DNA of 16,519 bases from a virus (lineage: Duplodnaviria > Heunggongvirae > Uroviricota > Caudoviricetes): IMG/VR virus record IMGVR_UViG_2579778660_000005. One strand, written 5' to 3'. The position numbers and the translations under genes were made by a program. Every line of letters begins with the position of its first letter. The first letter of the stretch is position 1. A model generated the notes under the pieces. It was not told the origin of the DNA and made no database searches. It worked only from the letters and a program-made list of their open reading frames with translations. Shown here in pieces: positions 1 to 16,519 of the stretch.

Positions 1-1284
1 TTACAGACTTCTGGAAGGTTGCGCAGCTCTTACAACACGCGGTTGATCTTCCGCAGCGTCTTCCAGCGCACTTAAATCACGGTCTTTCACCTCTGGCATT
101 TTCAGCGCAGAGATTAAACCAATTACTGAATATGCCATGATCATAATGGCGATCGGATACCAGGATTCCGTCATGGTGCAGAAAATCCCCGCCAGGATAG
201 GACCAAAACCGGAAGCGATAAGACCACCAATTTCTTTAGAAATAGCCATCCGGGTAAAGCGGTTTTTACAGCCGAACATTTCTGCCATGGTAATGTTTTC
301 CAGAGCAAATAATCCCAGCACCGCACAGTTATGAATCACAATCAGTGCAACCATAATGGTGCTCGGGGCATAGCTTTTATCTACAATGATAGAAAGCATT
401 GGCCATGCCAGCACAATCGCGGAGGTATTCATAATAATATACGGGATCCGGCGACCAATTTTATCGGATAACCAACCAAGGAACGGAATGGTCATAAAGC
501 CGAGAATCGAACTAATCATCAATGCATCTGTTGGAATTGCTTTGTTAAACAATAACGTCTGCACTAAATAGCCTGCAAGGAAAGTCTGAATTAACCCGGA
601 GTTACCCGCCTGACCAAAACGCAGCCCTGTTGCCAGCCAGAAGGATTTGCTCTGGAACATGCTACCAGCAGGTGCAGGTTTTGCTGTGGGTTGGTTGCTG
701 TCATTAACCTTCTCAAAGACCGGGCTTTCTTTCAGATTCATACGTAACCAGATAGCAAAGACCATCACGACAACGCTCGCCAGGAACGGTATACGCCATC
801 CCCACGCCAGCAGTTCCTCTTTACTGAGAATGAAGAACATAAAGGCCCAGATTGCCGTTGCGCTCAAGGTTCCGCAGTTAGTTCCCATAGCTACAAATGA
901 GGAGATAATTCCGCGCTTACCTTTTGGTGCATATTCCGCCAGCATCGTACCGGCACCGGAAATTTCCGCACCTGCACCCAACCCCTGAATAATACGCAGC
1001 GTCACCAGCAAGATGGGGGCAAAAACACCAATCTGTGCATAGGTCGGTAACACACCAATTAAGGTGGTACAGATCCCCATCATGGTGATGGTAATAAAGA
1101 GCACTTTTTTACGCCCTATTCTGTCGCCCATTTTGCCGAAAATAAATGCTCCGACAATACGCGCCACATAACCTGCACCGTAGGTTCCCATTGCCAAAAT
1201 TAACGCCATTGCCGTTGATGATTCAGGAAAAAATATTTCATGAAACACTAACGCTGCGCCGAGCGAATATAACTGGAAATCCAT
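1..1284 (-). CDS. ydfJ: MFS-type metabolite:H+ symporter (ProP/KgtP-like); N-terminus appears shortened
   Basis: 427-aa ORF with many hydrophobic helices and the MFS loop motif G-x-x-G-D-R-x-G-R-K-K starting near residue 50; aligns from memory with ProP starting at about ProP residue 25; an in-frame TGA lies two codons upstream of the ATG. Confidence 0.85.
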   Translation of the reverse strand: MDFQLYSLGAALVFHEIFFPESSTAMALILAMGTYGAGYVARIVGAFIFGKMGDRIGRKKVLFITITMMGICTTLIGVLPTYAQIGVFAPILLVTLRIIQGLGAGAEISGAGTMLAEYAPKGKRGIISSFVAMGTNCGTLSATAIWAFMFFILSKEELLAWGWRIPFLASVVVMVFAIWLRMNLKESPVFEKVNDSNQPTAKPAPAGSMFQSKSFWLATGLRFGQAGNSGLIQTFLAGYLVQTLLFNKAIPTDALMISSILGFMTIPFLGWLSDKIGRRIPYIIMNTSAIVLAWPMLSIIVDKSYAPSTIMVALIVIHNCAVLGLFALENITMAEMFGCKNRFTRMAISKEIGGLIASGFGPILAGIFCTMTESWYPIAIMIMAYSVIGLISALKMPEVKDRDLSALEDAAEDQPRVVRAAQPSRSL

Positions 1285-2068
1285 AATTCACAGGTGTTTT
1301 TTCCCATCCTGTGGTTTCCTTGGCGTTTTCTAGGTTTTTTCAGATAGTTGCATTTTTTAAAAAGCATCCTAAGTTCGATCTCAGTGTCTATCTGGGGCCT
1401 ATTTCTGTCCCATATATGCCCCAAAAAGACTCCCCAACAGATAAGTAGTTTTTCATGGATTTACGCGTAAAATCAATAACGGCTGGAAATCATTCAATAC
1501 TCGCACTATCGAAAAATTTACCAGCCAACCGCAGCACGTTCTTGCATAAGGCGTGTCTGCGGTTTTTCAACTATTCAGATAAATCACTCCCATCACATTC
1601 ATTCCTCCGCATCAAAGGCATATAGGCTATATCACCTTGATATTTTTCTTCTTCAGATAAAAACTGTTATCTATGTATACTTTTAAACCCAATCCGTGTA
1701 GAGTCTCTGCATAAGATAGTTTGCAGTTGCCGCTTCAGCTTGCGCCATAAACCGCCTGATTTTTGCTGCCACCTGTTAGCATTCCTGTATACCTGAAACG
1801 ACAATGTTTATCTACGAACTTTAAGAACACCCAAGATAAAAATTGTCAACTATATCATATATAACACATTACTAATTCGAGGCTATATGAACAGCATACT
1901 GATAATCACTTCTCTCCTTATCATATTCAGCATTTTTAGTCATGCCCTAATAAAATTAGGGATTGGCATATCCAATAACCCAGACAAAACCGATGTATAA
2001 GCCAACATATCCTGAATCAGACATACAATATCGCAATGAAAATCAATAATATTTTAAGGAATATCTTC

Positions 2069-2302
2069 ATGAAATCAAAAGACACCCTAAAGTGGTTCCC
2101 TGCGCAGCTTCCTGAAGTAAGAATTATCCTAGGGGATGCTGTAGTGGAAGTAGCAAAACAGGGAAGACCTATCAATACCAGAACATTGCTTGATTACATT
2201 GAAGGAAACATAAAGAAAAAATCATGGCTGGATAACAAAGAATTATTACAAACAGCGATATCAGTTCTTAAAGACAACCAAAATTTAAATGGTAAAATGT
2301 AA
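2069..2302 (+). CDS. ydfK: YdfK/YnaE-family small protein (77 aa)
   Basis: ORF track gives 88 aa from 2036; internal ATG at 2069 is preceded by AAGGA at 2056..2060 and matches the remembered YdfK start MKSKDTLKWF. Confidence 0.7.
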   Translation: MKSKDTLKWFPAQLPEVRIILGDAVVEVAKQGRPINTRTLLDYIEGNIKKKSWLDNKELLQTAISVLKDNQNLNGKM

Positions 2303-2618
2303 TATAATAAACTTACTTTTTTATCATTTTTCCACTTTAACAACATTTTGCTCCACTTTTCCACGACCAAACAACTTGAAATCTGGTTAAAATAACACGC
2401 AACACTATTCTTCTTCCTTGAGTCCGCCCGGAACTCGAAAAACAAACCGAGTTAAAGCCATTTTTCACAAAATCGATTTTGGGTCTCACCAAAATTACGG
2501 GGTTGCATACGCATTCGTTTATTTTCGAACGTGTACATACAAATATGCACAAAAATAATCAAAATTATTTTCTGAGATGCATTATGATATGAACACCAAT
2601 TTCGTATAGAGTCTCACT

Positions 2619-3209
2619 ATGTCTCGAATTTTTGCTTACTGTCGGATATCAACGCTGGATCAGACCACCGAAAATCAACGCCGGGAAATCGAAAGTGCAG
2701 GTTTTAAAATCAAACCTCAGCAAATAATCGAAGAACACATTAGCGGCTCAGCAGCAACCAGTGAGCGTCCTGGTTTTAACCGGTTGCTTGCTCGCCTGAA
2801 ATGTGGTGATCAATTGATTGTGACAAAACTGGATCGCCTTGGTTGTAATGCAATGGATATCAGGAAAACAGTGGAACAACTGACCGAAACAGGTATCAGA
2901 GTGCATTGCTTAGCATTGGGGGGCATTGACCTGACCAGTCCAACAGGAAAAATGATGATGCAAGTAATTTCAGCAGTCGCTGAATTTGAACGAGACCTTT
3001 TACTTGAACGCACTCATTCCGGGATAGTAAGAGCCCGCGGCGCAGGGAAACGTTTTGGTCGACCACCTGTGTTAAATGAAGAACAGAAACAGGTGGTATT
3101 CGAACGAATTAAGTCAGGTGTAAGTATAAGTGCCATTGCCCGGGAATTCAAAACCTCGCGGCAAACCATTTTAAGAGCCAAAGCAAAACTTCAGACACCT
3201 GACATATAA
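2619..3209 (+). CDS. pinQ: Serine recombinase, Gin/Hin/Pin-family DNA invertase
   Basis: 196 aa; N-terminal catalytic motif YCRISTLDQ and C-terminal HTH region typical of Pin/Gin invertases. Confidence 0.93.
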
Positions 3210-3306
3210 AAAATAATCTCGGTGTGAGATGCTTTACGTCTTCCAAGCCCCCTTCCTTGCCGTAAATGGAAAGATACATCTAATTATAGAATTTATATGT
3301 TTTACC

Positions 3307-3882
3307 CTACGGCAGTGCTGGCCATTCAATATCCTGTGCAGTTGACGTATCAACACGGTTCAGCAATACCCGATACTTTTTCCATGCTTCCAGCAACGAG
3401 ATTTCTTCCTCCGTTGCAATTTCCAGATCTGCAGCATCCTGAAGCGGCGCAATATGCTCACTGGCTACCTGCATCAGGTTGTTTTTTGTTTCTTCCGCCT
3501 CCCGGATCCGGAACAGTTTTTCTGCTTCCGTATCCTTCACCCAGGCTGTGCCGTTCCACTTCTGAAACTCCCCTTCCGGCGATAACCAGGTAACATTTTC
3601 CGGTAACGGACCGAGTTCAGAAATAAATAACGCGTCCCCTGATGCCACGTCATAAACTGTTTTACCCCGATGGTCTTCAACAAGATGCCACGATGCCTCA
3701 TCACTGTTGAAAACAGCCACGAAGCCTGCCGGAATATCTGGCGGTGCAATATCGGTACTGTTTGCTGGCAGACCTGTATGAGGCGGAATATATGCGTCAC
3801 CTTCACCAATAAATTCATTAGTTCCGGCCAGCAGATTATAAATTTTTATGGTCTGTGGTTGTTCACTCATTCTGAATGCCAT
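3307..3882 (-). CDS. tfaQ: Tail fibre assembly protein (Tfa)
   Basis: 191 aa recalled as lambdoid Tfa; start ATG overlaps the stop of the upstream tail-fibre ORF (TAATG arrangement). Confidence 0.85.
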
Positions 3883-4796
3883 TATGCAAGCCTCACAATA
3901 TAGTTAAATGCGATGTTTTTGACGGTGTTTTCCGCGTTACCAGCAGCGTTAACGGTGATGGTGTGTCCATGTGAACCAATCGCAACGGAGTGCGTATGAG
4001 CACCAATACCGACAGTATGTGCGTGAGCACCTGCAGATGCAGCTGTGCCGCTGACACTATGAGTGTGCGCTCCTGCAGCACTTGTATTCACACTGGCCGC
4101 AGACACTACCTTATGTACTGACCCATTTTGTGACCACTGGCTGATTGCTGATGCGCCTGTGACACTATGAGTATGGTTTCCGGCACTTGCGGCTGTACCG
4201 CTCACACTGTGCGTATGCGCCCCGGTGTTATTCGTGGATTTAGTGCCGTAATCAAACGACGATGTGGTTTTCGTCCCCAAATCCGTACTGGATGCGCTGG
4301 CGCTGTGGGTGTGCGATTTAATGCCGTCCTGTTCCTGAGACAATACGGCCCGACCACTGGCAGGTTTGCCCTTAATCGTCCAGCCACGCATATCAGGGAT
4401 CACGCCTGACGGATAAGCGGCTGCAAGTTTCGGGTAAGCAGATTTGTCAAAAGTCTGCCCCTGCATCAGGGCATAACCAGACGGAACGGTATCTGATGGC
4501 CACGGGATTGGTGCACCGACTGGATAAAACTCTGCAGGAGGATGAGCCGAGGTGTAAAGCTGCGCCCACGGCGACCAGTTTGCGTCGGTCGTATCCCGTC
4601 GTGAACGAATAAATGCCGGAGCATGAGCACCGCTTGTACCACTCCAGCCGATGAGTAACTCACCTTCGCCAACGGCTGTCATCCCTTTCAGGTGAATGAT
4701 ATTTCCATACGCTGTTGGATATCCGTTGTTATACACCTCGTATAACTCAAGACCTGCTGCCCCCTGCGTATTGTCTGTCAGCGCGGCTAACCGCAC
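3882..4796 (-). CDS. stfQ: Side tail fibre protein, C-terminal receptor-binding fragment (GTG start at a deletion junction; N-terminal part missing)
   Basis: 304 aa rich in Gly/Ser/Thr with repeated [15 protein letters not shown] His-x-His motifs typical of tail-fibre tips; starts with GTG at 4796 directly after an in-frame TGA and overlapping the stop of the L fragment. Confidence 0.65.
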
Positions 4797-5338
4797 TCAT
4801 CACCGCGATAGGTCCAGGTGCAGGTGTTGGCCAGCATGATACGTCCCGGAAAAACAGCGCCGTCCGTTTCCGTCGGTGTGGACAACACAAAGGAGGCACT
4901 GACCGCACTCAGTTCGCTGCACTGCTCGATGCGCCAGCGGCTGATCACCTCCTGCTCCGGATCGGCGTCGCTGTTTCCGTTGACGAAGTTCACCGCATCC
5001 AGAAAACGGGCGTAAACCTTACGCCTGACCACCGTTCCGCCGACCAGACTCTGCAGGTCTTCCGCCATCCCGGTGACCATGCCGTGCAGGTTAGAAACCG
5101 TCAGTGTCGGACGGGCAGCACTGCCCTTGCCGTTCAGTTCAAATCCCGTCCCCTGAATGGGGTATGCCTGATACTGCCGCCCCTGCCAGGTAACCGGCTC
5201 ACCTTTTTCGTTCTGCTCATTACAGAAAAAATAACGTTCACCACCGACCTCTGTCAGATCGATTTCCCAGAGCACCACCTGGGCTGACTGAGTGAGGCGT
5301 GTCGTCTCATGATGTGTTTCCTGTGGAATATCCTGCAG
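4787..5338 (-). pseudogene. Tail tip protein L fragment (lambda gpL homolog lacking its ATG and about 50 C-terminal residues)
   Basis: Residues QDIPQETHH...VVLWEIDLTEVGGERYFFCNEQNEKGEPVTWQGRQYQ...[12 protein letters not shown] match remembered lambda L nearly residue for residue; CTG at 5336..5338 replaces the initiator; stop follows ECG. Confidence 0.8.
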
Positions 5339-5831
5339 CGCCCCTAAATTGCCGCGGGCCAGTTCACCTATCAGAACGCCTATCTCCTGGCGGGCTGCTG
5401 CACTTTTCAGACCCAGCGAATGCGTGGCTTTTCCTGCCTGCTCCATTTTGCGGATATACACTTCTGCAGCACTGCTTACCCCCAGCTGGGCTGCCTTAGC
5501 ACGAAGCAACTCAGAAGATGAAAGATTCAGGCGGGTTGACATCACTGGCCGGAATGAGTTGTGCCGTTTCCTGTTCGAACTTAAGACGCTCACGTTCAGA
5601 CTGATACCAGGCTTTGCGCTCATGCGCGTCCATTTCGCCTTCTGCAACCGGCGGTGGTAATGCCAGAAATGCCGACACAATATCAACCACCCGATAAAGC
5701 TTGAGGTTGCTTTCATGCCCCCCTGCAACGGGTAGATTTTGCAGCCTTGCCGCAGCAGTCTGGCGATGTACACCTGACAGTGCCGCCAGTTGACTGATAT
5801 TCAGCGTCAGATTTTTTAACTCTCGATCCAT
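5339..5831 (-). pseudogene. nohQ: Terminase small subunit, Nu1-like (NohA family), frameshifted near 5535 and continuing in frame into the L fragment
   Basis: 106-aa frame (5511..5831) resembles the lambda Nu1 N-terminus; a second frame open from about 5542 carries Nu1-like C-terminal similarity and runs without stop into L. Confidence 0.55.
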
Positions 5832-6002
5832 ACCCGCTCCAGAATGTTTTAAACATGCATCTTGCGAACAACTTTAGGCAAACGGTGTTAGTGATGAACA
5901 AAAAACAATCAAAATCGACACCATAAAAATAAAACCACTGTAATATCAATCTATTACAGTGGTGGTGATGACGAATGAAATTTCAAAAACTAGCCTTTTT
6001 CC

Positions 6003-6022
6003 GCGACGCTCCCGCCCCGTGG
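6003..6022 (-). other. cos-like site (cosN remnant)
   Basis: Minus-strand CACGGGGCGGGAGCGTCGCGGAAAAAGG resembles remembered lambda cosN ACGGGGCGGCGACCTCGCGGGTTTTCG; lies about 180 bp upstream of the Nu1-like start, as in lambda. Confidence 0.35.
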
Positions 6023-6383
6023 CAGGCCACCCCACCGGGAGGACCCGACAGCCTGACAACCGTGACGAGCATCTGAAACAGAGCTTTACATAATGGCATG
6101 GGGATAATTCAGAAGGACATCACAGCATGCCCACACAAATTAGTGTGAGTGTCCTGTTTCTTACTACGCGCAGGACTGACGAGCATGAGGGGAAAATACG
6201 AGAACCGAAATGCCTTATCTTCAGAAATGCAGCCAGCATCCGAACTGGACGATATTGTAAATTCACCTAAATACGAGGCATTGCTGTAGTTGAATTACAG
6301 TACTGTATTAGCCTGACAGTGACAGAATACGATATTGACTCTGTCACTTGTGAAATGGTCAGAATGGTTAGCAGTTATGGTGA

Positions 6384-6590
6384 TCAATCAACCACCAGGG
6401 AATAATCCTTCGTATTCTTATCGTGCTTCACTAACGCTGCCTCAATTGCCCTGAATGCTTCCAGAGATACTTGATGTTCTATACATGCAATTATAACATC
6501 CGGGTAACTCATCGAAATGGTGCTATTAAGCATAGTTTTTACACGAACCTGCTCCTGGGAGGGGGCCTCAGTACATTGATCTTTATGCAT
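6384..6590 (-). CDS. Hypothetical small protein (possibly YnfO-like); start uncertain
   Basis: 68-aa ORF divergent from ydfO across a 290-bp intergenic region; no recognised motif. Confidence 0.35.
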
Positions 6591-6775
6591 TTTATCGCTC
6601 CATGCGTTTGTTCTTCACTTGTCGCTAAAAATATAACTTCAAATCTTTGAGCGTGGAAGTGTGGAAGTCACTGCGCGTTGATCTTGCATACATCGGTCGT
6701 TTGTTTTCCCCCCTGGCATATCAGAAAAACCAGGTTTTATAGCGGAATCAATACTATGTATTTTCCACCTGACTT

Positions 6776-6805
6776 TTGACACAAATCATCAATAAAACAT
6801 ATAAA
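6776..6805 (+). promoter_or_regulatory. Candidate sigma70 promoter for ydfO (TTGACA, 18-nt spacer, TATAAA)
   Basis: -35 TTGACA at 6776..6781 and -10 TATAAA at 6800..6805, about 75 bp upstream of the ydfO start. Confidence 0.4.
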
Positions 6806-6878
6806 GGTCAGACCAGATTGAAACGATAAAAACGATCTTGCAAACTACGTGCCCTCATACCATATGGAAGGTTTATCT

Positions 6879-7289
6879 ATGGATCAGGTAGTCATTTTTA
6901 AACAAATATTTGATAAAGTTCGAAACGATTTAAACTATCAATGGTTTTATTCTGAGCTAAAACGTCACAATGTCTCACATTACATTTACTATTTAGCTAC
7001 AGATAATGTTCATATTGTATTAAAAAATGATAATACAGTGTTATTAAAGGGCCTAAAAAACATTGTGTCTGTCAAATTTTCAAAGGATAGGCATCTTATA
7101 GAAACGACCTCTAATAAGCTGAAATCCAGTGAGATCACATTTCAGGAATACAGAAGAAACCTTGCTAAAGCAGGAGTTTTTCGGTGGGTTACAAATATCC
7201 ACGAACAAAAAAGATATTACTATACCTTTGATAATTCATTACTCTTTACTGAAAACATACAGAGCACATCACAAATATTTCCACACTAA
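6879..7289 (+). CDS. ydfO: YdfO-like protein (DUF1398)
   Basis: ORF track starts at a GTG (6849); ATG at 6879 is preceded by GGAAGG at 6866..6871 and gives 136 aa starting MDQVVIFKQ, matching remembered YdfO. Confidence 0.75.
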
Positions 7290-7608
7290 ACCATAACGTC
7301 CGGTTTTTTCTACCCCAGCACCGGACTGGCTGACATAAAGAGCAACCCCACGTTAAGTTGACGCGTTAATAACCCGGTGTACATCGTTTTTGATTATTCC
7401 CCCACACTCGCGCAGAAGGAGTTCCCCGTCAGGCTACAGTCATAATTAATGCAGGAGCACAGCGACGATACAGCGCACAGAAACAAATCAGGCATCCATT
7501 AACTTCACACAAACGATGCATTGCATCGACAGGAGTAATGGCGTAAGTTGGATTCTTGGCGCTCTTTCGCCACCGGCGAATCTTCAGCGGATTATCCTTG
7601 GCCTGTTT

Positions 7609-8088
7609 TTATCTGAGGCATTGCTCACGAATGTATCGCTGTGCCCCCTCCAGTTGTTTTTGCATTATGATCAGTCTTTCTCTGAGGGAGAAATAATCCC
7701 GTTCAGCGGTGTCTGCCAGTCTGGGGGAGGTTGCATTATCCACGCCGGAGGCGATGGTGGCTTCACGCACAGACGGACAGATTGCTTTGATGTGCAACCG
7801 ACGACGACCAGCGGCAACATCATCACGCAGAGCATCATTTTCAGCTTTCGCATCAGCTAACTCCTTCAGGTATTTTGCATCGAGTGCAGCAACATCACGC
7901 TGGCGTATCTGCATGTCAGTAATGATTGCGGTCGCCTGGTTGAGTTTTTCCGACACATTATCGCGTTGCGCTTTGTAGGTAATGGCATTATCACGGTAAT
8001 GATTAACAGCCCATGACAGGCAGACGATGATGCAGATAACCAGAGCATAAATAATCGCGGCAACTCTGCTCACTGCTCTATCCCCCAA
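7609..8088 (-). CDS. rzpQ: Spanin inner-membrane subunit Rz (i-spanin)
   Basis: 159 aa; N-terminal TM helix [33 protein letters not shown] and coiled-coil region near-identical to remembered lambda Rz. Confidence 0.9.
7671..7853 (-). CDS. rzoQ: Spanin outer-membrane lipoprotein Rz1 (o-spanin), embedded in Rz in the +1 frame
   Basis: 60 aa with lipobox LVVVGC and proline-rich core [18 protein letters not shown], very close to remembered lambda Rz1. Confidence 0.85.
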
Positions 8089-8603
8089 CAGGCTAATGCG
8101 CTTTCCTGGTCACGACGAATAACCTGACCATAACAGTTATTTGAACGAATGCGGCAATCGCGCCCCCTGTCCTTAATCCACCAGCGAATCGCCTCGCAGG
8201 CACCTTTACGATCACCTGCATTCAGCCGTTTATAAAACGTCGACGGAAAACACTTACCGGGGCCAATGTTATAGGGACAAAATGACGCGATACCCGCTTT
8301 CTGGGGTTCGGTCAGCGGCACTTTAATATTGCGCTCCACCCATGCCAGCGCCTTATCGCGTTCAATGGCATTAACCTGAGCACATTTTTCCTTCGTCAGT
8401 TTCATGCCCGGAATAACAGATTTACCATCCACCATCGTGGCACCACGACAGATGGTCCATATGCCGGAACCATCGCGGTATGCCGTAGTGTGGTTACCCT
8501 CTTTTTCATCCAGAAACTGGTCAAGTATCTGTGGAGCTGATGCGCCTGCTCCAATCAGCGCCAGAGCTGCAGCTGACAGGCCGTATTTGATTTTTGCGTT
8601 CAT
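8070..8603 (-). CDS. rrrQ: SAR endolysin (phage-21 R-type lysozyme)
   Basis: 177 aa; weakly hydrophobic Gly/Ala-rich N-terminal signal-anchor-release helix [16 protein letters not shown], then E...D...T lysozyme motif region. Confidence 0.9.
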
Positions 8604-8658
8604 GGATATTTATCAGGATGCTACCAATGAAAGATACTGGAAAGCCAACCGCAAAAAG

Positions 8659-8973
8659 CTAACAACCCGTAATCGAGTTATCAGAACTGTTAATTTTTAT
8701 GGTATACCGCGCCTCTGAACAGGGGCGCGTTTCTGGCAACAGCTCGTCCCCTTCACATAACCCGGCAGCAACATCCAGGAAGACCTGTCTGATGCTCCTT
8801 CTGGCTGCTGCCTCATAAAACTCCAGCGCGGCACCTTCAACACGGACCAGCGAGATGTCCAGGTCAAAAATTTCACCGTCAAAGCGTTCTTTGTCCCGTA
8901 ACGCTAAAGTTACCGTAACTTTATTCTCAAAATTGCGGATCCCTTTCACAATCAGTTCATATTTTTGAGTCAT
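8659..8973 (-). CDS. ydfR: YdfR-like protein (DUF1327) inside the lysis cassette
   Basis: 104-aa ORF between holin and endolysin genes, the same position as ydfR in Qin-type prophages. Confidence 0.65.
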   Translation of the reverse strand: MTQKYELIVKGIRNFENKVTVTLALRDKERFDGEIFDLDISLVRVEGAALEFYEAAARRSIRQVFLDVAAGLCEGDELLPETRPCSEARYTIKINSSDNSITGC

Positions 8974-8977
8974 TGAA

Positions 8978-9193
8978 TTACTCTCCCCGTGCAGCCTTAC
9001 GCTTGTCTTCTTTAATCTTGAAATAAAGGTTTGTCAGGTACGTCAGCAGGCCAAATACCAGGCTACCCAGCACACCTATTGCTGCCCACTGTGAGGGCGT
9101 GACTTTATCGAGCAGCTGTAAAAACCAGTAGCCAGCACTGCCTGCGGAGGTGCCGTAGGCAATGCCTGTTGAAATTTTGTCCATGGATTTCAT
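8978..9193 (-). CDS. essQ: Pinholin, S21-like class II holin with dual-start motif (71 aa)
   Basis: Sequence [26 protein letters not shown]...[13 protein letters not shown] matches remembered S21; two in-frame ATGs at 9193 and 9184 (minus) preceded by GGAGGTGA; the 90-aa track ORF is an unsupported upstream extension. Confidence 0.88.
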
Positions 9194-9295
9194 AGCCTCA
9201 CCTCCGCACGGAACGGATGGCATAGTTATTATGTGTAGGCTTCCAGACACATCAATCAGAGCCTTAATTGATATATATGCTGGAGACGATGCAAT

Positions 9296-9319
9296 ATAAA
9301 AAGCTCGCCGTAGCGAGCT
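9296..9319 (-). terminator. Rho-independent terminator (minus strand) between lipoprotein gene and holin
   Basis: Minus-strand AGCTCGC-TACG-GCGAGCT stem-loop followed by TTTTT. Confidence 0.55.
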
Positions 9320-9444
9320 AATAAAATGTATTTCTCTGATATTATGTTTATTTGTATTAGCTCAGACTTGACATCACAGGTTTCGTATATAGAACATCAT
9401 CAAATCTGTCAGTTTGCTATGAATGAGATATAGTAATTGAAGAG

Positions 9445-9840
9445 CTAACCTCGCATGTCAAAGCCAGATTTCTGAAAATCTCTGTAGACTTCCGGATTGT
9501 TGAAGGCCGGAAATTTGGCTTTATGAGCTGCGGACTTTATCGCTTCGCAATAGGCTTTATCACCGTTACTGGTAGATATTTTTAACGCCGTGCCATCCTG
9601 AGAGAATTCCATATGCAACCTGCATTTTTTCCCTTTCCAGTTATGCGGCTCATCAAGTTTGGCATTAATTGCAGCTCTGATTCCCCGCGCTTGCGCCCCC
9701 CATTCATCCTGATCATCCCAGCGTCCTGAACTGCAACTACCTGTAGCAGTAGTTTTGTGGCAATCTGAAGGGTGTAAAGGTGTGCATCCCGCAACAAAAC
9801 CGACCCAAAAAGTCAACATAACGATTTTCTTTAATCCCAC
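9445..9840 (-). CDS. Lipoprotein with diverged TolA domain III-like C-terminal domain (paralog 1)
   Basis: 131 aa; GTG start preceded by GGAG; signal peptide with lipobox VAGC; C-terminal part aligns with paralog 2 and with remembered TolA domain III. Confidence 0.75.
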   Translation of the reverse strand: MGLKKIVMLTFWVGFVAGCTPLHPSDCHKTTATGSCSSGRWDDQDEWGAQARGIRAAINAKLDEPHNWKGKKCRLHMEFSQDGTALKISTSNGDKAYCEAIKSAAHKAKFPAFNNPEVYRDFQKSGFDMRG

Positions 9841-9990
9841 TTCTTGCTCCTCAATCCATTAAAATCTCAGCAATAGTAGTTGTTACGTCCGCCACTGGCT
9901 CAGAGCTGACTATCCGCTAAATTTAGCTCAGTGCCGTAGTTGTGTCAGAACAAACCTAAGCCGAAACCGTTTATTACAAAACAATAAATA

Positions 9991-10419
9991 TCAGGGTTTA
10001 AAATCCAGCACCCCATTTTGAAATACTTTATATACTTCCGGCGAAGGGGGGGCAGGTATATCAGCATTCTTTATCGCATTCATCGCTTCACGACATAAAT
10101 CGAGGTCTCCACTTTCTCTTTTAACCTCCAGTAGAAGGCCATTCGGGGCCATATGCATTCTCAGTGTACACTCTTTTCCTGAATACTTACTCGCATCCCC
10201 GAACTGTTTTTCGATGGCGCTCTTGATTTGATGGGCATACAGACGGATATCCTCACTAACATCAGAAGTACGTTCAGATGAACTCACATACTGTGTCTCT
10301 ATTGCTTTATCGGAGTAATATGATGTACGGTCATGATAATTTGTCGATACAGCATCAGTGCACCCGATAATAATCCCACTAATAATCAACGTAAGAATTG
10401 ATGCGCTACGAAAACCCAT
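9991..10419 (-). CDS. Lipoprotein with TolA domain III-like C-terminal domain (paralog 2)
   Basis: 142 aa; ATG preceded by GAGG; lipobox IIGC; C-terminal 86 aa (YAHQIKSAIEKQF...GKECTLRMHMAPNGLLLEVK...IPAPPSPEVYKVFQNGVLDFKP) about 60 percent identical by eye to the remembered E. coli TolA C-terminus. Confidence 0.8.
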   Translation of the reverse strand: MGFRSASILTLIISGIIIGCTDAVSTNYHDRTSYYSDKAIETQYVSSSERTSDVSEDIRLYAHQIKSAIEKQFGDASKYSGKECTLRMHMAPNGLLLEVKRESGDLDLCREAMNAIKNADIPAPPSPEVYKVFQNGVLDFKP

Positions 10420-10448: not shown

Positions 10449-10454
10449 ATTATA
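10449..10454 (-). promoter_or_regulatory. Candidate -10 element (TATAAT) for the lipoprotein genes
   Basis: Perfect TATAAT on the minus strand about 30 bp upstream of the paralog-2 start; -35 is weak. Confidence 0.3.
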
Positions 10455-10952
10455 TATACCGTTGTTTTGGACGCTCAAACAGCGAATCAGATCAAATAAA
10501 ACGCACATTTGTTAACATTTACACAAAGTCTGCGTGGGATATTCTGAAAGAATATCCATAATGTGGAGAGAATCTATTGAAGTGCATGGTGCCGGGTGCC
10601 TCCCGGTGAATTCAGTACCAGCACCTGAATCCGCGATTATCCCATATACCTACTCGCTGATTGCCCCTCCGCACAGGGGGATTCACCATGCCAGTTTCTT
10701 TTAACAAACTCCCCGCAAACCAGAGAACAGTCAACCGCCTGAATTGTGAAGTATTTAAAAATTTCTCCCGCTAACTGATACCCGGCTAACAGTCTGGCGT
10801 TTTCTTTTTCAGCAACGGGAAAGCAACAACCACCACACCCGCCACCAGCACACCGTCAGCCAGCACTGACATTATCCGGCTGCTGCAATGCCATTCACAA
10901 AAACAGTAAGCAATCACTTTTTACCGTAACAGGTGATAATCCAGATATGTAT

Positions 10953-11306
10953 CTACCCCAGATGAGTAATCCGAAGTTCATCCATACCACAGGTCCTGGC
11001 TATTCTGTTGTACTCCTGAACAAGAGCAAATAATTCTGAATTAGCAACCATGAACTCATCGCAAACCCTCTGTATAGCATCACTATTCAGAATAATAACG
11101 TCTCTTCCCGAAAGACGATCAGGAGCACAGAACAAAACTGTCAAACGGCTGAAGGCCTTTGCTCGTGCTGCATTGACTATATCAATACGCTGCCTAAGGA
11201 TGAAACACCCCGACGCCTCATCAATATTCACTCTACCCACACCATATGAATGATAAATATTTAATGCTGAAAAAACCATTAGACCGTATAACAAACACTC
11301 AATCAA
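10953..11306 (-). CDS. Hypothetical protein (117 aa, TTG start; possible cargo gene)
   Basis: Long ORF in an AT-rich stretch, same orientation as the late operon, directly downstream of the tRNAs; no recognised motif; start codon uncertain. Confidence 0.35.
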   Translation of the reverse strand: MIECLLYGLMVFSALNIYHSYGVGRVNIDEASGCFILRQRIDIVNAARAKAFSRLTVLFCAPDRLSGRDVIILNSDAIQRVCDEFMVANSELFALVQEYNRIARTCGMDELRITHLG

Positions 11307-11416: not shown

Positions 11417-11493
11417 TGGCGCGCTGTACTGGATTCGAACCAGTGACCGATTGCTTAGAAGGCAATTGCTCTGTCCGGCTGAGCTAACAACGC
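11417..11493 (-). tRNA. argO: tRNA-Arg (anticodon UCU)
   Basis: 77-nt cloverleaf folded by hand: acceptor GCGUUGU/ACAGCGC, D-stem GCUC/GAGC, anticodon stem AUUGC/GCAAU with loop CUUCUAA, T-arm ACUGG-UUCGAAU-CCAGU, 3' CCA. Confidence 0.9.
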
Positions 11494-11712: not shown

Positions 11713-11736
11713 AAAAAACCCGCTCGGTGGCGGGTT
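11713..11736 (-). terminator. Rho-independent terminator downstream of Q (tR'-like)
   Basis: Minus-strand AACCCGC-CACCGA-GCGGGTT stem-loop followed by a U-tract. Confidence 0.6.
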
Positions 11737-11816: not shown

Positions 11817-12638
11817 TTACCTAGTTACCTTTTTTAACTGCCGCTCAGCCCATGCTTCTTCAATATCAAACCGGGTCACCAGCGCATCATAGAATTTCTT
11901 AACTGTTTTTTCCCATGACGCGCGTGTTATCTGGTTTGTCACCTCGCATATAGCATTAAATGCCTCCGTTGATGGTAGTCTTTCATAGCCCCGACCACCA
12001 CAACGCTGGCAGTCTCTGATAACAGGCATACCACGTTTTACCGACTCTTCACGGTGAATGGCGACACCACGCCCACGGCAATCCTTACAGGCGGTGGAAA
12101 CCTCACCCTTTCCGCCACACTCCGGACAGGCAACTTTTACCACCTCCCTGACTTTTTTCCATTCTTCCCAGTAAGACGGATACACACCTTTCGTACACTT
12201 TGCCCATACCGGCGGCTTACCATCCGGATACTGGACCTTGTTTGTAAAAACTACGCTTTCAATAAATTTTTCCCCATAGCAACAAGGGCACTGCTTTTTA
12301 CTCGCTGCGCTGCGGGCATAATCCTCAAAAGCGTACGAAGCCATAATGCGCATCACTAACGGTTTTATTTCTGCCGGAAGTTTTCTCAACGCCGCCACAC
12401 GATCGCACCGACTGAGTGCATAATCTGCCAGTAATTCTGTTGCCCGCGCCCTGTCATTCATACTGATGCCCATTTTCCCCAGGAACGCAGAAAATCCCAT
12501 CTCAGCCCGATTCTGTGTCATGCCCTGCGCGGCCATCACATCAGTGATACTCAGCGCATCTTTTGACGTTGAGGCCGATGCATCGGTCAGGCCAGGGGAT
12601 TTTGGGGAGTAGTATTTCGGTAAATCTTCCAGTTTCAT
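11817..12638 (-). CDS. quuQ: Late-gene antitermination protein Q (lambda Q family)
   Basis: 273 aa; shares with remembered lambda Q the blocks SPKSP...TDVMAA.GM, CxxC-GxG zinc motifs (CKDCRGRG, CQRCGGRGY) and TVK..YDALV. Confidence 0.9.
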   Translation of the reverse strand: MKLEDLPKYYSPKSPGLTDASASTSKDALSITDVMAAQGMTQNRAEMGFSAFLGKMGISMNDRARATELLADYALSRCDRVAALRKLPAEIKPLVMRIMASYAFEDYARSAASKKQCPCCYGEKFIESVVFTNKVQYPDGKPPVWAKCTKGVYPSYWEEWKKVREVVKVACPECGGKGEVSTACKDCRGRGVAIHREESVKRGMPVIRDCQRCGGRGYERLPSTEAFNAICEVTNQITRASWEKTVKKFYDALVTRFDIEEAWAERQLKKVTR

Positions 12639-13021: not shown

Positions 13022-14026
13022 TTACCCAAGCACGCCAGTTGCAAAGGCGTGATCAAGAAAACGAAAAATTAAATCAACCTGAGAACCATGCTTTTCTTCG
13101 AACGCCAGAGGATCCGCATGAAACTCGTTGTGATGCTCCCGACACAGCGGTAGCGTGAAAATATCGTGAGATTTTGTCCCCATTCCGCCCTGACCATGAC
13201 CAATCAGGTGATGGGGATCGTCGGCTGGCTTACCACAACACGCACACGGCTGTGTCTTCACCCAGCGTGTGTATTTCTCGTTAACCCAGCGGCGACGTTT
13301 AGGTCGTTTCATGAAAGATTCCGGAGACTCAGGATCAACGGCAATGCTGACCACCGTCTTTTCCTGTGGTGGGTTCTGTTGCTGGTGGGCGTGAGGCAGC
13401 GGCGCAAGATTTTTTGTGCGCTGTTTCAGTATGCTGGTGGCGGTCTGCTCTCCCGGTACGATGTCGCTTTCACGGTACATTGAGCGGATTTTTTCCGCAC
13501 GCAACCCCAGCGAACCACGTAATACCGCTTCCGGTAGCGCGTCCGCCACCTGATTGCGGACCGCCCACCAGGATAATTCAGCCAAAGATAATTCACGCTC
13601 CTGCGTACCGCTTATTGCGTGACCGATGACGTCAATCATCCATGCTGACAGGTTTTGATGAGCAAGTTGCTCGAGTGATTCGGATGTCTGGTCACGCAGC
13701 TGGTTGTCGCAGTGCCAGCACAACACCATTGCGCCGGTACCATAACGGTGAATGACGGTTTCGCTGTGATGATAATCGCCGTGTGGCCACTGGCAGGATT
13801 TAATATGGCGCAACAGCCAGTCAGACAATGCACCAGCACCACCAGCAGCACGAATTACCCGTGCGTTACTGAAAAACGGCAGCAATGTTTTGTCTTCCAC
13901 CAGCGGCTGGCGAACGGCAGGAACGACCCCGGACGGCAGATTACGCATGCTTTTCGGTTCCGGCTCCACCAGTACCCGGGTATTGTGGAATACCGGCATG
14001 GATTCACGGCCCGGCTTAACGACCAC
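13022..14026 (-). CDS. ydfU: DUF968 protein with C-terminal HNH-like Cys/His motif (YdfU-like); start uncertain
   Basis: 334 aa; C-terminal CACCGKPADDPHHLIGHGQGGMGTKSHD...CREHHNEFH; track start is GTG, an ATG lies at 13999. Confidence 0.7.
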   Translation of the reverse strand: MVVKPGRESMPVFHNTRVLVEPEPKSMRNLPSGVVPAVRQPLVEDKTLLPFFSNARVIRAAGGAGALSDWLLRHIKSCQWPHGDYHHSETVIHRYGTGAMVLCWHCDNQLRDQTSESLEQLAHQNLSAWMIDVIGHAISGTQERELSLAELSWWAVRNQVADALPEAVLRGSLGLRAEKIRSMYRESDIVPGEQTATSILKQRTKNLAPLPHAHQQQNPPQEKTVVSIAVDPESPESFMKRPKRRRWVNEKYTRWVKTQPCACCGKPADDPHHLIGHGQGGMGTKSHDIFTLPLCREHHNEFHADPLAFEEKHGSQVDLIFRFLDHAFATGVLG

Positions 14027-14321
14027 CAGCCCGAGTTCCGGTAGCCTCCATAATTGCAGGCACTAGCGCCGTGAACTTTTCACGCTTATCCCTGGTGTCG
14101 ATAGCCTTCCAGCGTTCGAATATCTTCACTCGATTAACGCCAAGCGCTCGCTGATCAACCGCGCCACCTTCATCTGTGACACGCTGAACATCGATGTTCG
14201 GGCGCTCTTTCAAAGCCCAGAATGCTTCAGTGATTAATATCGTCGCCTGCTCCTGTGTCATTCCTGGTCGACATATCCAGGCATCCAGAGCCTCACGAGC
14301 CTGTTCAGGAGTGATTTTCAT
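14016..14321 (-). CDS. Hypothetical phage protein (101 aa; possibly YdfX-like)
   Basis: ORF overlapping both neighbours in a compact operon downstream of the Cro-like gene; no recognised motif. Confidence 0.45.
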   Translation of the reverse strand: MKITPEQAREALDAWICRPGMTQEQATILITEAFWALKERPNIDVQRVTDEGGAVDQRALGVNRVKIFERWKAIDTRDKREKFTALVPAIMEATGTRAGGR

Positions 14322-14532
14322 TGTTCAACCGCCCCGCCCGCTTCGTCTTACGATATTCGTCATAAACCTTGGGATCATACAGAAGCTCGCCGCCAGATGC
14401 CTCCTGTAGACGCATCGCGCGACCTTCAGGAACCAGCTCTTGCCATTGAGAAACAGCAGATGGGTCAACGCCAGCAGCTTTCGCTACTTTGGCTTTCGTA
14501 CCGTAAAAATTAATTACGTCTGATTTAAACAT
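14305..14532 (-). CDS. dicC: Cro-like HTH regulator (DicC-like), 75 aa
   Basis: HTH-like segment GTKAKVAKAAGVDPSAVSQW; start taken at the internal ATG 14532 preceded by GGAGG; divergent from the repressor gene. Confidence 0.75.
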   Translation of the reverse strand: MFKSDVINFYGTKAKVAKAAGVDPSAVSQWQELVPEGRAMRLQEASGGELLYDPKVYDEYRKTKRAGRLNNENHS

Positions 14533-14545
14533 CGCACCTCCAGTA

Positions 14546-14559
14546 TTGAGTTTTCTCAA
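14546..14559. promoter_or_regulatory. Candidate DicA operator (TTGAGTTTTCTCAA) in the dicC-dicA divergent region
   Basis: Imperfect inverted repeat whose 10-mer AGTTTTCTCA recurs twice downstream of dicA. Confidence 0.45.
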
Positions 14560-14609
14560 TGCTAATCACTCAAGGAATCTCAAGTCAAGGGTTATTAAGA
14601 TATCTAAAT

Positions 14610-15017
14610 ATGAACGAGAAAACTTTAGGTCAACGCATTAGAGAAAGACGTAAGCAGGTAGGTTTAAGTCAAAACGGTTTAAGCAAAGCTGCTGGCGTAT
14701 CTGGCTCATCAATTTCATTATGGGAAAGTGACCATACAGCCCCGCGCGGGCAAAATTTGCATCGCCTCGCCGAGGTATTGCAATGTTCACCAACCTGGAT
14801 ACTGTTTGGCGACGAGGACAAAACACCAGCTCCCCCTGTTTCACTCGATAGTGCCTTAGACTTATCGGAAGATGAGTTAGAGATGCTGCGTTTGTATCGC
14901 GCACTTCCTAAATCAGAGCAACAAGCACAACTCAGCGAACTCCGCGCCCGCGTTGAGAATTTTAATCGCCTGTTCACCGAGCTATTAGAGGCTCGCAAAC
15001 GCAACAAGCATCAATAA
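14610..15017 (+). CDS. dicA: XRE-family HTH repressor (DicA-like), 135 aa
   Basis: Contains LQCSPTWILFGDEDK and a C-terminal region matching remembered DicA; start at ATG 14610, the 152-aa track ORF is an upstream extension. Confidence 0.88.
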   Translation: MNEKTLGQRIRERRKQVGLSQNGLSKAAGVSGSSISLWESDHTAPRGQNLHRLAEVLQCSPTWILFGDEDKTPAPPVSLDSALDLSEDELEMLRLYRALPKSEQQAQLSELRARVENFNRLFTELLEARKRNKHQ

Positions 15018-15081
15018 TCATCCCTTCACAAAATTTTAAAGCCTTACATTTCAATGTATTGGCTTTATCTTGCGTCAATAC

Positions 15082-15133
15082 TTGAGTTTTCTCATCAAAA
15101 AGCCTTGACGAAAAATAATGAGAAAACTAAATT
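15082..15133 (+). promoter_or_regulatory. Candidate operator-promoter for the ydfA operon
   Basis: -35 TTGACG (15105..15110), 17-nt spacer, -10 TAAATT (15128..15133); 10-mer AGTTTTCTCA at 15084..15093 and its reverse complement TGAGAAAACT at 15119..15128 inside the spacer. Confidence 0.45.
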
Positions 15134-15209
15134 ACCTCCATCAACACACCGCACGGTGTTCTCAGCAAACAGTTCCGCTACCCCGGCGTTAAGGGGAAAT
15201 GAGGTCAGC

Positions 15210-15365
15210 ATGGATACTATCGATCTTGGCAACAACGAATCTCTGGTGTACGGCGTGTTTCCAAACCAGGACGGCACGTTCACCGCAATGACGTATACCA
15301 AAAGCAAAACGTTTAAAACCGAAAATGGTGCCCGTCGCTGGCTGGAAAGAAACTCAGGTGAGTGA
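15210..15365 (+). CDS. ydfA: YdfA-like small protein (51 aa)
   Basis: ATG at 15210 preceded by AAGGGGAAATGAGG; protein MDTIDLGNNESLVYGVFPNQDG...; stop overlaps the next start. Confidence 0.7.
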   Translation: MDTIDLGNNESLVYGVFPNQDGTFTAMTYTKSKTFKTENGARRWLERNSGE

Positions 15366-15366
15366 T

Positions 15367-15798
15367 ATGGATTTCGACACAATCATGGAAAAGGCTTACG
15401 AAGAATACTTCGAAGGCCTTGCCGAAGGCGAAGAAGCTCTCAGCTTCAGTGAGTTTAAACAGGCACTCAGAATAAGAATGTGCTCTCACAATGACGCGGA
15501 GCACAAATATGAGAAGCAAAATCAGACCGCAGAAAATTTTGTTCTGGAACCCGGAGAAACGCTTTTCAAAATTCCCGTTACGTGCCCCATTTGCGGTTTT
15601 ACATCAGAAGAACTTGACGACTCCTGTAACAATCAGGAAACAACCAAGTATGTCGAAGATGATACCGAGTGCGCACGAAGAACGATTATATCCACGAGTC
15701 CAAACTCCAGAACCAATAAATCTCACTTTGAGAGGGTGATTAACCCACTAGACTGGCCCCCTGAATCTCCAGACAACCAGTATCACTTAAATAAGTGA
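15367..15798 (+). CDS. YdfB/YdfC-like protein with CPICGF motif; 3' end replaced by IS2 sequence
   Basis: 143-aa ORF starting [17 protein letters not shown]; its last about 16 codons and stop lie inside the IS2 left end that begins at 15749. Confidence 0.55.
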
Positions 15799-15839
15799 TA
15801 GTCTTAATACTAGTTTTTAGACTAGTCATTGGAGAACAG

Positions 15840-16205
15840 ATGATTGATGTCTTAGGGCCGGAGAAACGCAGACGGCGTACCACACAGGAAAAGATCGCAA
15901 TTGTTCAGCAGAGCTTTGAACCGGGGATGACGGTCTCCCTCGTTGCCCGGCAACATGGTGTAGCAGCCAGCCAGTTATTTCTCTGGCGTAAGCAATACCA
16001 GGAAGGAAGTCTTACTGCTGTCGCCGCCGGAGAACAGGTTGTTCCTGCCTCTGAACTTGCTGCCGCCATGAAGCAGATTAAAGAACTCCAGCGCCTGCTC
16101 GGCAAGAAAACGATGGAAAATGAACTCCTCAAAGAAGCCGTTGAATATGGACGGGCAAAAAAGTGGATAGCGCACGCGCCCTTATTGCCCGGGGATGGGG
16201 AGTAA
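15840..16205 (+). CDS. insC: IS2 transposase OrfA (InsC)
   Basis: 121 aa [56 protein letters not shown]... matches remembered InsC. Confidence 0.92.
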
Positions 16206-16519
16206 GCTTAGTCAGCCGTTGTCTCCGGGTGTCGCGTGCGCAGTTGCACGTCATTCTCAGACGAACCGATGACTGGATGGATGGCCGCCGCAGTCGTCAC
16301 ACTGATGATACGGATGTGCTTCTCCGTATACACCATGTTATCGGAGAGCTGCCCACGTATGGTTATCGTCGGGTATGGGCGCTGCTTCGCAGACAGGCAG
16401 AACTTGATGGTATGCCTGCGATCAATGCCAAACGTGTTTACCGGATCATGCGCCAGAATGCGCTGTTGCTTGAGCGAAAACCTGCTGTACCGCCATCGAA
16501 ACGGGCACATACAGGCAGA
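16163..16519 (+). CDS. insD: IS2 transposase OrfB (InsD), 5' part only, in the -1 frame relative to insC
   Basis: Translation (V/M)[45 protein letters not shown]... matches remembered InsD; slippery heptamer A-AAA-AAG at 16157..16163. Confidence 0.85.

Follow-up and report, generated by a model that had tools for sequence, protein, structure and literature searches.

Paired short lipoproteins carrying TolA domain III in the late operon of a cryptic lambdoid prophage: candidate decoys for Tol-dependent import

What could two adjacent genes for small lipoproteins that resemble the tip of the host protein TolA be doing in the late operon of a prophage? This question was raised by a DNA stretch of 16,519 nucleotides, IMG/VR record IMGVR_UViG_2579778660_000005 (in its whole length referred to below as the window), which is a cryptic lambda-like (lambdoid) prophage of Escherichia coli. 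Its late operon contains a pair of genes for proteins of 142 and 131 amino acids (aa), each consisting of a lipoprotein signal, a tether and a domain homologous to the C-terminal domain III of TolA (TolA-III), to which colicins and filamentous phages attach on their way into the cell; their relatives are called here 142-type and 131-type. The two genes represent separate lineages within a large class of short TolA-III lipoproteins that is found in Enterobacterales and is functionally unstudied. The explanation favoured here, to which about an even chance is given, is that these proteins would act as outer-membrane-tethered, motor-less TolA-III decoys and confer tolerance to Tol-dependent bacteriocins and filamentous phages.

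TolA-III was recognised in both proteins by profile, sequence and structure comparison. The Pfam model of the TolA C-terminal domain (PF06519, gathering score 25 bits) matched residues 49-140 of the 142-aa protein (E=2.4e-23, 82.6 bits) and residues 44-125 of the 131-aa protein (E=1.3e-14, 54.6 bits). In a phmmer search of the PDB, residues 55-142 of the 142-aa protein were aligned with residues 334-421 of E. coli TolA at E ~5e-28 and ~60% identity, and the 131-aa protein was found to be 31% identical to E. coli TolA-III. The TolA-III fold was defined by an N-terminal helix, a three-stranded sheet with interleaved helices and a C-terminal edge strand, β3. The AlphaFold2 (AF2) models of both proteins had a predicted local distance difference test score (pLDDT) of ~90 in the domain, with low-confidence N-terminal parts (residues 1-50 in the 142-aa model; residues 1-26 and 32-35 in the 131-aa model). 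The top Foldseek match of the 142-aa model was 2x9a_B (template modelling (TM) score 0.96, root-mean-square deviation (rmsd) 0.6 A, 59% identity), and that of the 131-aa model was 3qdp (TM 0.92, rmsd 1.0 A, 31% identity). The cysteine pairs C84/C109 and C73/C98 of the two proteins aligned with C363/C388 of E. coli TolA and were invariant in the family alignments. The original prediction, which had been made from the letters of the DNA without database searches, had matched the C-terminal part of the 142-aa protein to a string of TolA residues, and the same residues appeared in the phmmer alignment. Its description of the 131-aa protein as a more diverged version of the same fold was borne out by the PF06519 and 3qdp matches, and the protein search and structure prediction against TolA-III that it had proposed gave significant results for both open reading frames (ORFs). 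The lipobox signal peptides that it had placed in both ORFs (IIGC and VAGC, with Thr at +2) were confirmed in position and pattern.

The two proteins are not TolA orthologues, because domains I and II were absent from both in the matches to full-length TolA models, which covered only the last ~80-100 positions of those models (model ~265-387), and because the NF007065 scores (107.8 and 53.7 bits) both failed the cut-off of 213. In addition, the genes lie outside the tolQRA-tolB-pal operon, between phage Q and the holin gene. The 142-aa protein passed the TIGR02794 cut-off (75.6 versus 59.45) via domain III alone; therefore, the name 'cell envelope integrity protein TolA' given to the 142-type by the Prokaryotic Genome Annotation Pipeline (PGAP) is an over-annotation. 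Public annotation already shows the domain similarity. Identical genes bear the NCBI/PGAP names 'cell envelope integrity TolA C-terminal domain-containing protein' or 'tolA family protein', which are labels only, and both window proteins are full-length members of PHROG 5772 (E ~1e-62 to 1e-65), whose function entry reads 'unknown'.

Both ORFs were found at the stated positions, on the minus strand (Table 1). The 142-aa ORF has an ATG start with GAGG 5 nt upstream, and the 131-aa ORF has a GTG start preceded by GAGGAG. The N-termini, in that order, are MGFRSASILTLIISGIIIGC followed by TD and MGLKKIVMLTFWVGFVAGC followed by TP. Both combine a basic n-region (R4; K4K5), a hydrophobic core and a lipobox with Cys at position 20 (IIGC) or 19 (VAGC), as read by eye against a PROSITE PS51257-type rule (pattern [LVI][ASTVI][GAS]C, Cys at 15-35). 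In the family alignments, the lipobox Cys was invariant, and the Gly before it was nearly invariant. Since the +2 residue is Thr and not Asp in both cases, the Lol rule predicts that both are outer-membrane lipoproteins. The 142-aa protein continues with a disordered tether of ~30 aa (residues 21-50) rich in S/T/Y/D and with TolA-III at ~51-142, ending in the β3 strand VLDFKP. In the 131-aa protein, TolA-III (~41-131) is preceded by the tether CTPLHPSDCHKTTATGSCSSGRWDDQDEW, which is highly conserved and has two additional Cys, and the β3 strand is GFDMRG. The 131-type tether (product residues 20-47; CxPLHPSxCHKTTATGSCSSGRWDDQDEW) was conserved across genera as much as the domain, and AF2 put its two extra cysteines in a low-confidence β-hairpin. 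It is unlikely to be a passive linker because it is conserved like the domain and has these two cysteines. The interpretation of this tether (SSGRWDDQDEWG) as a colicin E9 TolB box was dropped: the Trp spacing differs, and the second Trp aligns with TolA Y340 at the start of helix 1 and hence lies within the domain.

The 142-aa and 131-aa proteins were 27% identical and belonged to different lineages; therefore, the pair was not produced by tandem or local duplication. Of the earlier description of the genes as a tandem with a copy of the same fold, the adjacency and the fold were retained, and the tandem duplication was discarded. In a neighbour-joining tree of low resolution, the 131-type formed its own deep clade of short proteins, and the 142-type nested beside E. 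coli TolA. The 131-type comprised >370 clusters at 90% identity, from Citrobacter, Enterobacter, Serratia, Klebsiella and Raoultella, and the 142-type was found only in E. coli and Shigella. An exhaustive profile search of 1.84 billion cluster representatives returned 584 clusters at E<=1e-3. Among the best 148 of these clusters, 95 were <=170 aa, and at least 53 of these 95 short clusters (62 by a looser pattern) had a signal peptide with a lipobox. The named members were all Enterobacterales (Enterobacter, Serratia, Dryocola, Leclercia and Chimaeribacter) with generic TolA-domain labels.

Both types are under purifying selection, which is strong in the 131-type: the ratio of nonsynonymous to synonymous substitution rates (dN/dS, Nei-Gojobori) was 0.07-0.13 at dS 0.5-1.15 for the 131-type and 0.33 for the 142-type in comparison with its 66% identical variant. 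It is thus hard to see these genes as non-functional cargo, i.e., as tolA fragments that arose by illegitimate recombination and persist in a decaying prophage, and this explanation is considered very improbable. The window prophage is indeed degraded, and in one genome the 142-aa gene is marked by PGAP as tolA, incomplete. However, in addition to dN/dS values well below 1, both genes have complete lipoprotein signals and good ribosome-binding sites, hundreds of sequences contain the intact ORFs (cluster sizes 520 and 696), and dozens of 50%-identity clusters share the same short lipoprotein architecture.

According to the favoured explanation, the precursors would be exported, lipidated at Cys20 and Cys19, respectively, and sorted to the inner leaflet of the outer membrane. 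A tether of 20-35 residues would hold the disulfide-containing TolA-III beneath this membrane with the β3 edge strand free. The tethered domain would then rival genuine TolA in binding partners that attach by β-strand addition, namely, the TolB N-terminus, the segments by which group A colicins and cloacin-type bacteriocins bind TolA, and the N1 domain of g3p from filamentous phages. Because domains I and II, and with them the link to the TolQR motor, are missing from the mimic, captured ligands would not be energised, and their import would stall. The lysogen or plasmid host would gain tolerance to Tol-dependent bacteriocins and pilus-specific filamentous phages, and the price would probably be a mild Tol-Pal defect. 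The 142-aa protein would be a close TolA mimic, and the 131-aa protein, which represents an apparently older, strongly conserved lineage with other side chains, may cover other ligands. Expression would start from the genes' own promoter in the lysogen and would be raised by Q-dependent late transcription.

Periplasmic TolAIII reportedly made cells tolerant to colicins and phage in work by Levengood-Freyermuth from the Webster laboratory in 1993. Periplasmic g3p-N1 sequesters TolA, which results in colicin A resistance and a 4-log fall in fd uptake (PMC10424213), and TolAIII exported by means of a fused signal sequence makes cells release periplasmic protein (PMC6195910). Like the proposed decoys, such laboratory constructs present free TolA-III or its ligand and titrate the natural interaction; the outcomes reported for them, including the 1993 work, are a tol phenotype, tolerance to colicins and failure of Ff infection (PMC10424213, PMC6195910). 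The constructs are artificial, soluble and overexpressed, whereas the window genes are natural, have their own candidate expression signals and encode proteins that are predicted to be lipid-anchored. They would be a natural, lipid-anchored, mobile-element form of a domain for which only engineered constructs have so far revealed dominant-negative effects.

The ligand sites of TolA-III allow the conserved surface to be compared with function. Colicin A binds β2 and nearby lysines (L375-P380, K368, K379 and K396) (PMC3365938), and g3p-N1, colicin N and TolB bind the edge strand β3 (A415-K420) by β-strand addition; D418P or K420P abolishes β3 binding and causes a full tol phenotype (PMC4339652). 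When the four mobile-element lineages were aligned, β3 was found to be kept as [L/F]-D-[F/M]-[K/R], without proline and with D418 invariant. The residue at position 418 was D in 40 of 58 short-lipoprotein cluster representatives versus 19 of 54 full-length TolAs, and the β3 residues in these 58 representatives were conserved at least as well as in the 54 full-length TolAs. Judging from these alignments, β3 is the best-kept surface in all lineages compared. Because β3 is conserved across the lineages and the colicin A site is not, the common denominator is the site shared by TolB, g3p and colicin N.

The context in which stand-alone TolA-III lipoproteins occur outside prophages, on plasmids for Tol-dependent bacteriocins (cloacin) and on pilus-producing I-complex plasmids, fits the decoy explanation. 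The pili of I-complex plasmids attract the TolA-dependent phage If1, and PDB entry 2x9a shows If1 g3p bound to TolA-III. An 88% identical copy of the 131-type was present on ~600 plasmids. In all four inspected MPF_I conjugative plasmids (IncK2/Z or IncI1/B/O), the 131-type followed directly after nikA/mobA and the relaxase gene nikB in the same orientation, i.e., it was the third gene of the nikA-nikB operon, and it occupied the same place on pO113. On pO157, it lay beside a truncated nikB, near toxB. The plasmid loci with 131-type copies included L005 (4965-5396), L009-L011 (3465-3896), L003 (7004-7435) and L002 (7003-7434). Klebsiella and Enterobacter IncF plasmids (L004, 4217-5246) encoded a 144-aa TolA-III lipoprotein, with LLITAC followed by S, immediately after a thioredoxin/DsbA-like gene, the product of which may be a dedicated disulfide-forming partner of this lipoprotein.

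A solitary chromosomal 131-type gene occurred in Enterobacter kobei, Serratia marcescens and Citrobacter, at a different variable locus in each, and 23 further contigs contained the E. kobei gene with mostly the same neighbours. The S. marcescens gene (L012, 6001-8736) adjoined a GmrSD_N/HEPN gene pair in defence-island-like surroundings; elsewhere, the neighbour was an ars/prophage island. Genes of this kind could suggest that an outer-membrane TolA-III docks TolB or another partner (Pal, CpoB) as a general fitness or virulence factor carried by mobile elements and tunes Tol-Pal activity, vesicle production or stress tolerance rather than blocking invaders. Loss of Tol-Pal function raises vesicle production. 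The conserved solitary gene in E. kobei agrees with such a role, and the strong purifying selection on the 131-type, including its tether, suggests a conserved cellular partner. Nevertheless, this role is judged quite improbable. The chromosomal site differs by genus and falls in variable regions (defence genes, prophage and ars islands), which is typical of accessory functions; the gene is absent from ~75% of complete E. coli genomes, and K-12-type genomes do without it. Moreover, Tol-Pal tuning can hardly explain why, on a bacteriocin plasmid described below, a TolA-III gene is paired with that for a TonB C-terminal domain (TonB-CTD).

This pairing was found on 241 small ColRNAI plasmids (10,060 or 11,970 bp), almost all from Klebsiella, which carried genes for a bacteriocin with a cloacin/colicin-E translocation domain, for immunity and for lysis. 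All 241 also carried a divergent cassette in which the gene for a 123-aa TolA-III lipoprotein overlapped that for a 121-aa secreted TonB-CTD. The lipoprotein has LLLTAC followed by K and ends with NAPLDFRP, and the TonB-CTD signal ends in VHA before IP. The sole LexA box on the cloacin plasmid, a perfect one, belongs to the bacteriocin promoter and not to the TolA-III/TonB cassette. In comparison with the window proteins, the Klebsiella lipoprotein (e.g., on NZ_CP107420.1) has the same architecture (lipobox LTAC, short tether and the same type of ending), is also encoded by a mobile element and shows ~39% identity to the domain of the 142-aa protein. Its partner is a TonB-CTD and not a second TolA-III, and its gene adjoins a bacteriocin operon instead of a phage lysis cassette. 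In related 9.3-kb cloacin plasmids, an 'Exc2 family lipoprotein' was annotated in the matched stretch beside the cloacin gene.

A broader explanation is put forward tentatively, as a serious possibility that falls short of an even chance: mobile elements may carry widespread unrecognised 'motor-decoy' genes for free tip domains of two envelope force transducers, which would act as dominant-negative import blockers. TolA-III would take the form of an outer-membrane lipoprotein and, on the cloacin plasmids, TonB-CTD that of a secreted protein, with lambdoid prophages, I-complex and IncF conjugative plasmids and small bacteriocin plasmids of Enterobacterales as the carriers. Both Tol- and Ton-dependent import would be blocked, and the host would broadly tolerate bacteriocins and pilus-specific filamentous phages regardless of the receptor used. 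The tandem pair would then be a two-specificity version placed in the stx cargo slot and exchanged through the region flanked by tRNAs and STnc100/AsxR.

The location of the window genes in the late operon raises another alternative, namely, that they help lysis or release. Expressed late by Q antitermination together with holin, endolysin and spanin, the proteins would titrate TolB from TolA, block Tol-Pal, loosen the link between the outer membrane and peptidoglycan, and speed or complete the breakdown of the envelope; on bacteriocin plasmids, they would aid release. The cassette does lie inside the late operon, and it forms a 99-100% identical block with the P21-type holin gene while the lysozyme and upstream genes vary. 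Targeting of TolAIII to the periplasm causes release of periplasmic protein (PMC6195910), tol-type β3 mutants leak alkaline phosphatase (PMC4339652), and a relative shares its plasmids with a gene for a colicin lysis protein. However, close relatives are found in the relaxase operon of conjugative plasmids or as solitary chromosomal genes without nearby lysis genes, and the cloacin-plasmid cassette is divergent from the SOS-controlled bacteriocin/lysis operon and does not share its LexA box. In the window, a terminator-like hairpin separates the cassette from the holin gene, and a promoter-like site precedes it; the solo variant of the 142-type in other prophages is 3-4 kb away from the holin gene. 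The search of the window revealed no LexA box near the cassette. Because of the plasmid and chromosomal homologues, the TonB-CTD pairing on a bacteriocin plasmid, the position of that plasmid cassette outside SOS control and the framing of the window cassette by a candidate promoter and terminator, protection fits better than lysis, and a role in lysis is regarded as unlikely.

Several points weigh against the decoy explanation. The 142-type has retained the colicin A site in part (L375, L376, K379 and K396), and the 131-type and the Klebsiella types have lost it; given these contact residues, it would be unsafe to postulate a decoy for all group A colicins. An arms-race protein would not be expected to be as strongly conserved as the 131-type. 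The natural affinity between TolA and TolB is weak, ~40 uM (PMC4339652), and therefore an effective decoy needs a high local concentration, and titration of TolB should cost the host a leaky envelope. The cassette is welded to the holin gene within the late operon, which would also fit a role in lysis. The promoter is a consensus match, and a comparison with the solo-variant locus was uninformative on promoter and terminator conservation because the flanks of the solo variant are unrelated to those in the window. No PADLOC-DB v2 model matched either protein at E<=1, and full-text literature searching found no functional study of any member. A 32-fold ciprofloxacin induction of a prophage 'TolA' gene (PMC11125564) was set aside, since the supplement lists EDL933_2012 as a tail fibre protein, and these genes are not meant.

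Among known proteins, E. coli TolA-III itself (~334-421; PDB 1tol, 2x9a, 3qdp/3qdr and 1s62) has the same fold and disulfide pair. At 60% identity, the 142-aa protein has kept the β3 sequence LDFKP and the colicin A-site lysines K379 and K396, and at 31% identity, the 131-aa protein has the same order of secondary structure elements. Unlike TolA, the window proteins have no transmembrane domain I, no helical domain II and no TolQR coupling; instead, they have a lipoprotein signal and a short tether, are predicted to be anchored in the opposite (outer) membrane and are encoded by mobile elements. Cor (phi80/N15/HK022) and Llp (T5) are small phage lipoproteins that act on FhuA and are proposed to shut an import pathway used by both phages and colicins. 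The window proteins are likewise small phage-encoded lipoproteins with a proposed role of this kind and have no sequence or fold relationship to Cor and Llp. Cor and Llp target an outer-membrane receptor, whereas the window proteins would target a periplasmic energy-transduction step by mimicry of a host protein.

If the decoy explanation is true, approximately one in seven complete E. coli genomes carries the pair as a shield, and numerous plasmids of Klebsiella and E. coli likewise protect their hosts from Tol-dependent bacteriocins and filamentous phages, whichever receptor these use. It would also mean that natural mimicry of a host protein is aimed at periplasmic energy transduction and not at surface receptors and that the stx slot of lambdoid phages has a non-toxin alternative cargo. 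Genome-based prediction of colicin and klebicin sensitivity, bacteriocin therapeutics and phage-display-type infections would all change. If the role in lysis is true, Tol-Pal inhibition would be an accessory step of phage lysis.

The distribution of the genes in phages and prophages was also studied. The 1.3-kb region of the window was 100% identical to that of Escherichia phage mEp460_ev081, the sole INPHARED record with these genes, and the whole region was present at ~99-100% identity in 773 of 5,426 complete E. coli genomes. Considering the single INPHARED record, it may be concluded that phage databases under-represent these genes relative to prophages in genomes. A comparison of 80 IMG/VR loci showed the identical 142-131-holin block (99-100% identity) in ~38 of them, on differing prophage backbones. 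Around this block, the lysozyme varied (34% or 86-100% identity to the window lysozyme), as did the upstream backbone, with a PF03589 Q or, in locus L049, a DUF1133 Q-like protein. The solo 142-type variant (65-68% identity) was found in ~25 of the 80 loci, 3-4 kb before the holin gene and directly after tRNA-Met(CAT) and tRNA-Arg. Seventeen IMG/VR viral contigs with the 131-type only were rejected as phage cargo, since they represent a chromosomal flank (umuDC, SRAP and btuE) beside a prophage remnant.

Other prophages had STnc100-family elements immediately before the pair or, at solo-variant loci, immediately after the gene, where the element was joined by a further array of four copies; STnc100 loci elsewhere were L063 (5536-8487), L007 (1942-4893) and L059 (5599-5863). 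At one solo-variant locus (L059), a match to AsxR, the anti-stx2 small RNA (sRNA), was detected. It is plausible that the STnc100 elements and tRNAs are recombination flanks for the exchange of late-region cargo. The position between Q/tRNAs and the holin gene given in the original prediction agrees with the coordinates in Table 1. Its remark that this is the slot of stx is well founded, since the solo variant lies directly after tRNA-Met(CAT)/tRNA-Arg and beside an AsxR match, which is where stx2 is located, and STnc100 elements flank the cargo. The term 'phage-borne', in turn, applies to this pair and not to the family, since 131-type genes also occur in the chromosomes of Enterobacter, Serratia and Citrobacter.

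The minus strand of the window contains, in order, genes for DUF968, RusA and Q, a hairpin at the tR' position, a tRNA gene with a CAT anticodon, a tRNA-Arg gene, a 117-aa ORF and a DUF3927 ORF. These are followed by the STnc100 element, the promoter-like site, the 142-aa gene, a 150-nt spacer and the 131-aa gene and then by a hairpin with a T-run and the genes for a P21-type holin, DUF1327, lysozyme and Rz (Table 1). The GC content across the TolA-III cassette was 37-46% versus ~50% in the flanking lysis and Q genes. With its candidate promoter, terminator-like hairpin and low GC content, the gene pair looks like a moron of classical layout. If the PGAP label tRNA-Ile holds for the CAT tRNA, this tRNA would belong to the lysidine-type, ileX-like kind known from Stx phages. 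Elsewhere, e.g., in prophage locus L063 (6925-7215), a copy of the 117-aa ORF with 58% identity was found downstream of the solo 142-type variant.

Table 1. Features of the late region of the window and the related cassette of the cloacin plasmid
Feature	Position	Strand	Remarks
Antiterminator Q	11817..12638	-	PF03589; start of late operon reading through cassette
Terminator-like hairpin	11717..11736	-	~80 nt downstream of Q; position expected for Q-dependent late terminator tR'
tRNA with CAT anticodon	11598..11673	-	Met by ARAGORN; tRNA-Ile by PGAP for identical gene
tRNA-Arg (TCT)	11417..11493	-	In late-operon leader
117-aa ORF	10953..11306	-	TTG start, without Pfam match; between tRNAs and cassette
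43-aa DUF3927 ORF	10786..10917	-	Between tRNAs and cassette
STnc100-family sRNA-like element	10530..10720	-	Rfam RF02076, 114 bits; directly upstream of cassette promoter candidate
Sigma-70-like promoter candidate	10449..10478	-	TTGAGC, 18 nt, TATAAT; consensus match, 10/12; ~30 nt upstream of 142-aa ATG
142-aa lipoprotein precursor	9991..10419	-	Lipobox, tether, TolA domain III
131-aa lipoprotein precursor	9445..9840	-	GTG start; lipobox, tether, diverged TolA domain III
Intrinsic-terminator-like hairpin	9302..9319	-	AGCTCGC-TACG-GCGAGCT then T5; between 131-aa stop and holin; closes two-gene cassette
P21-type holin S	8978..9250	-	PF04971; likely start MKSMDK at 9193
DUF1327	8659..8973	-	Lysis cassette
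Lysozyme	8070..8603	-	Lysis cassette
Rz spanin	7609..8088	-	Lysis cassette
Cloacin-plasmid cassette	NZ_CP107420.1 (L018) 6445-7178, with 8024-9976 and 1-150		Divergent from bacteriocin-immunity-lysis operon

The degradation of the prophage is apparent on both sides of the late region. From the left edge, positions 1-7300 of the window contain a host major facilitator superfamily (MFS) transporter gene, a Pin-type invertase gene, a tail-fibre assembly gene, the tail-fibre fragment and the truncated tail protein L gene, and the IS3-family transposase ORF is at the right end (14000-16519). The lysis genes and both TolA-III genes are still intact despite this decay. In a genome with a 100% identical region, the prophage sits at a Qin-like site beside ydfG and dicB. 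Within the tail-fibre assembly gene, an Rfam IS009 match of 220.9 bits was detected at 3341-3539 on the minus strand.

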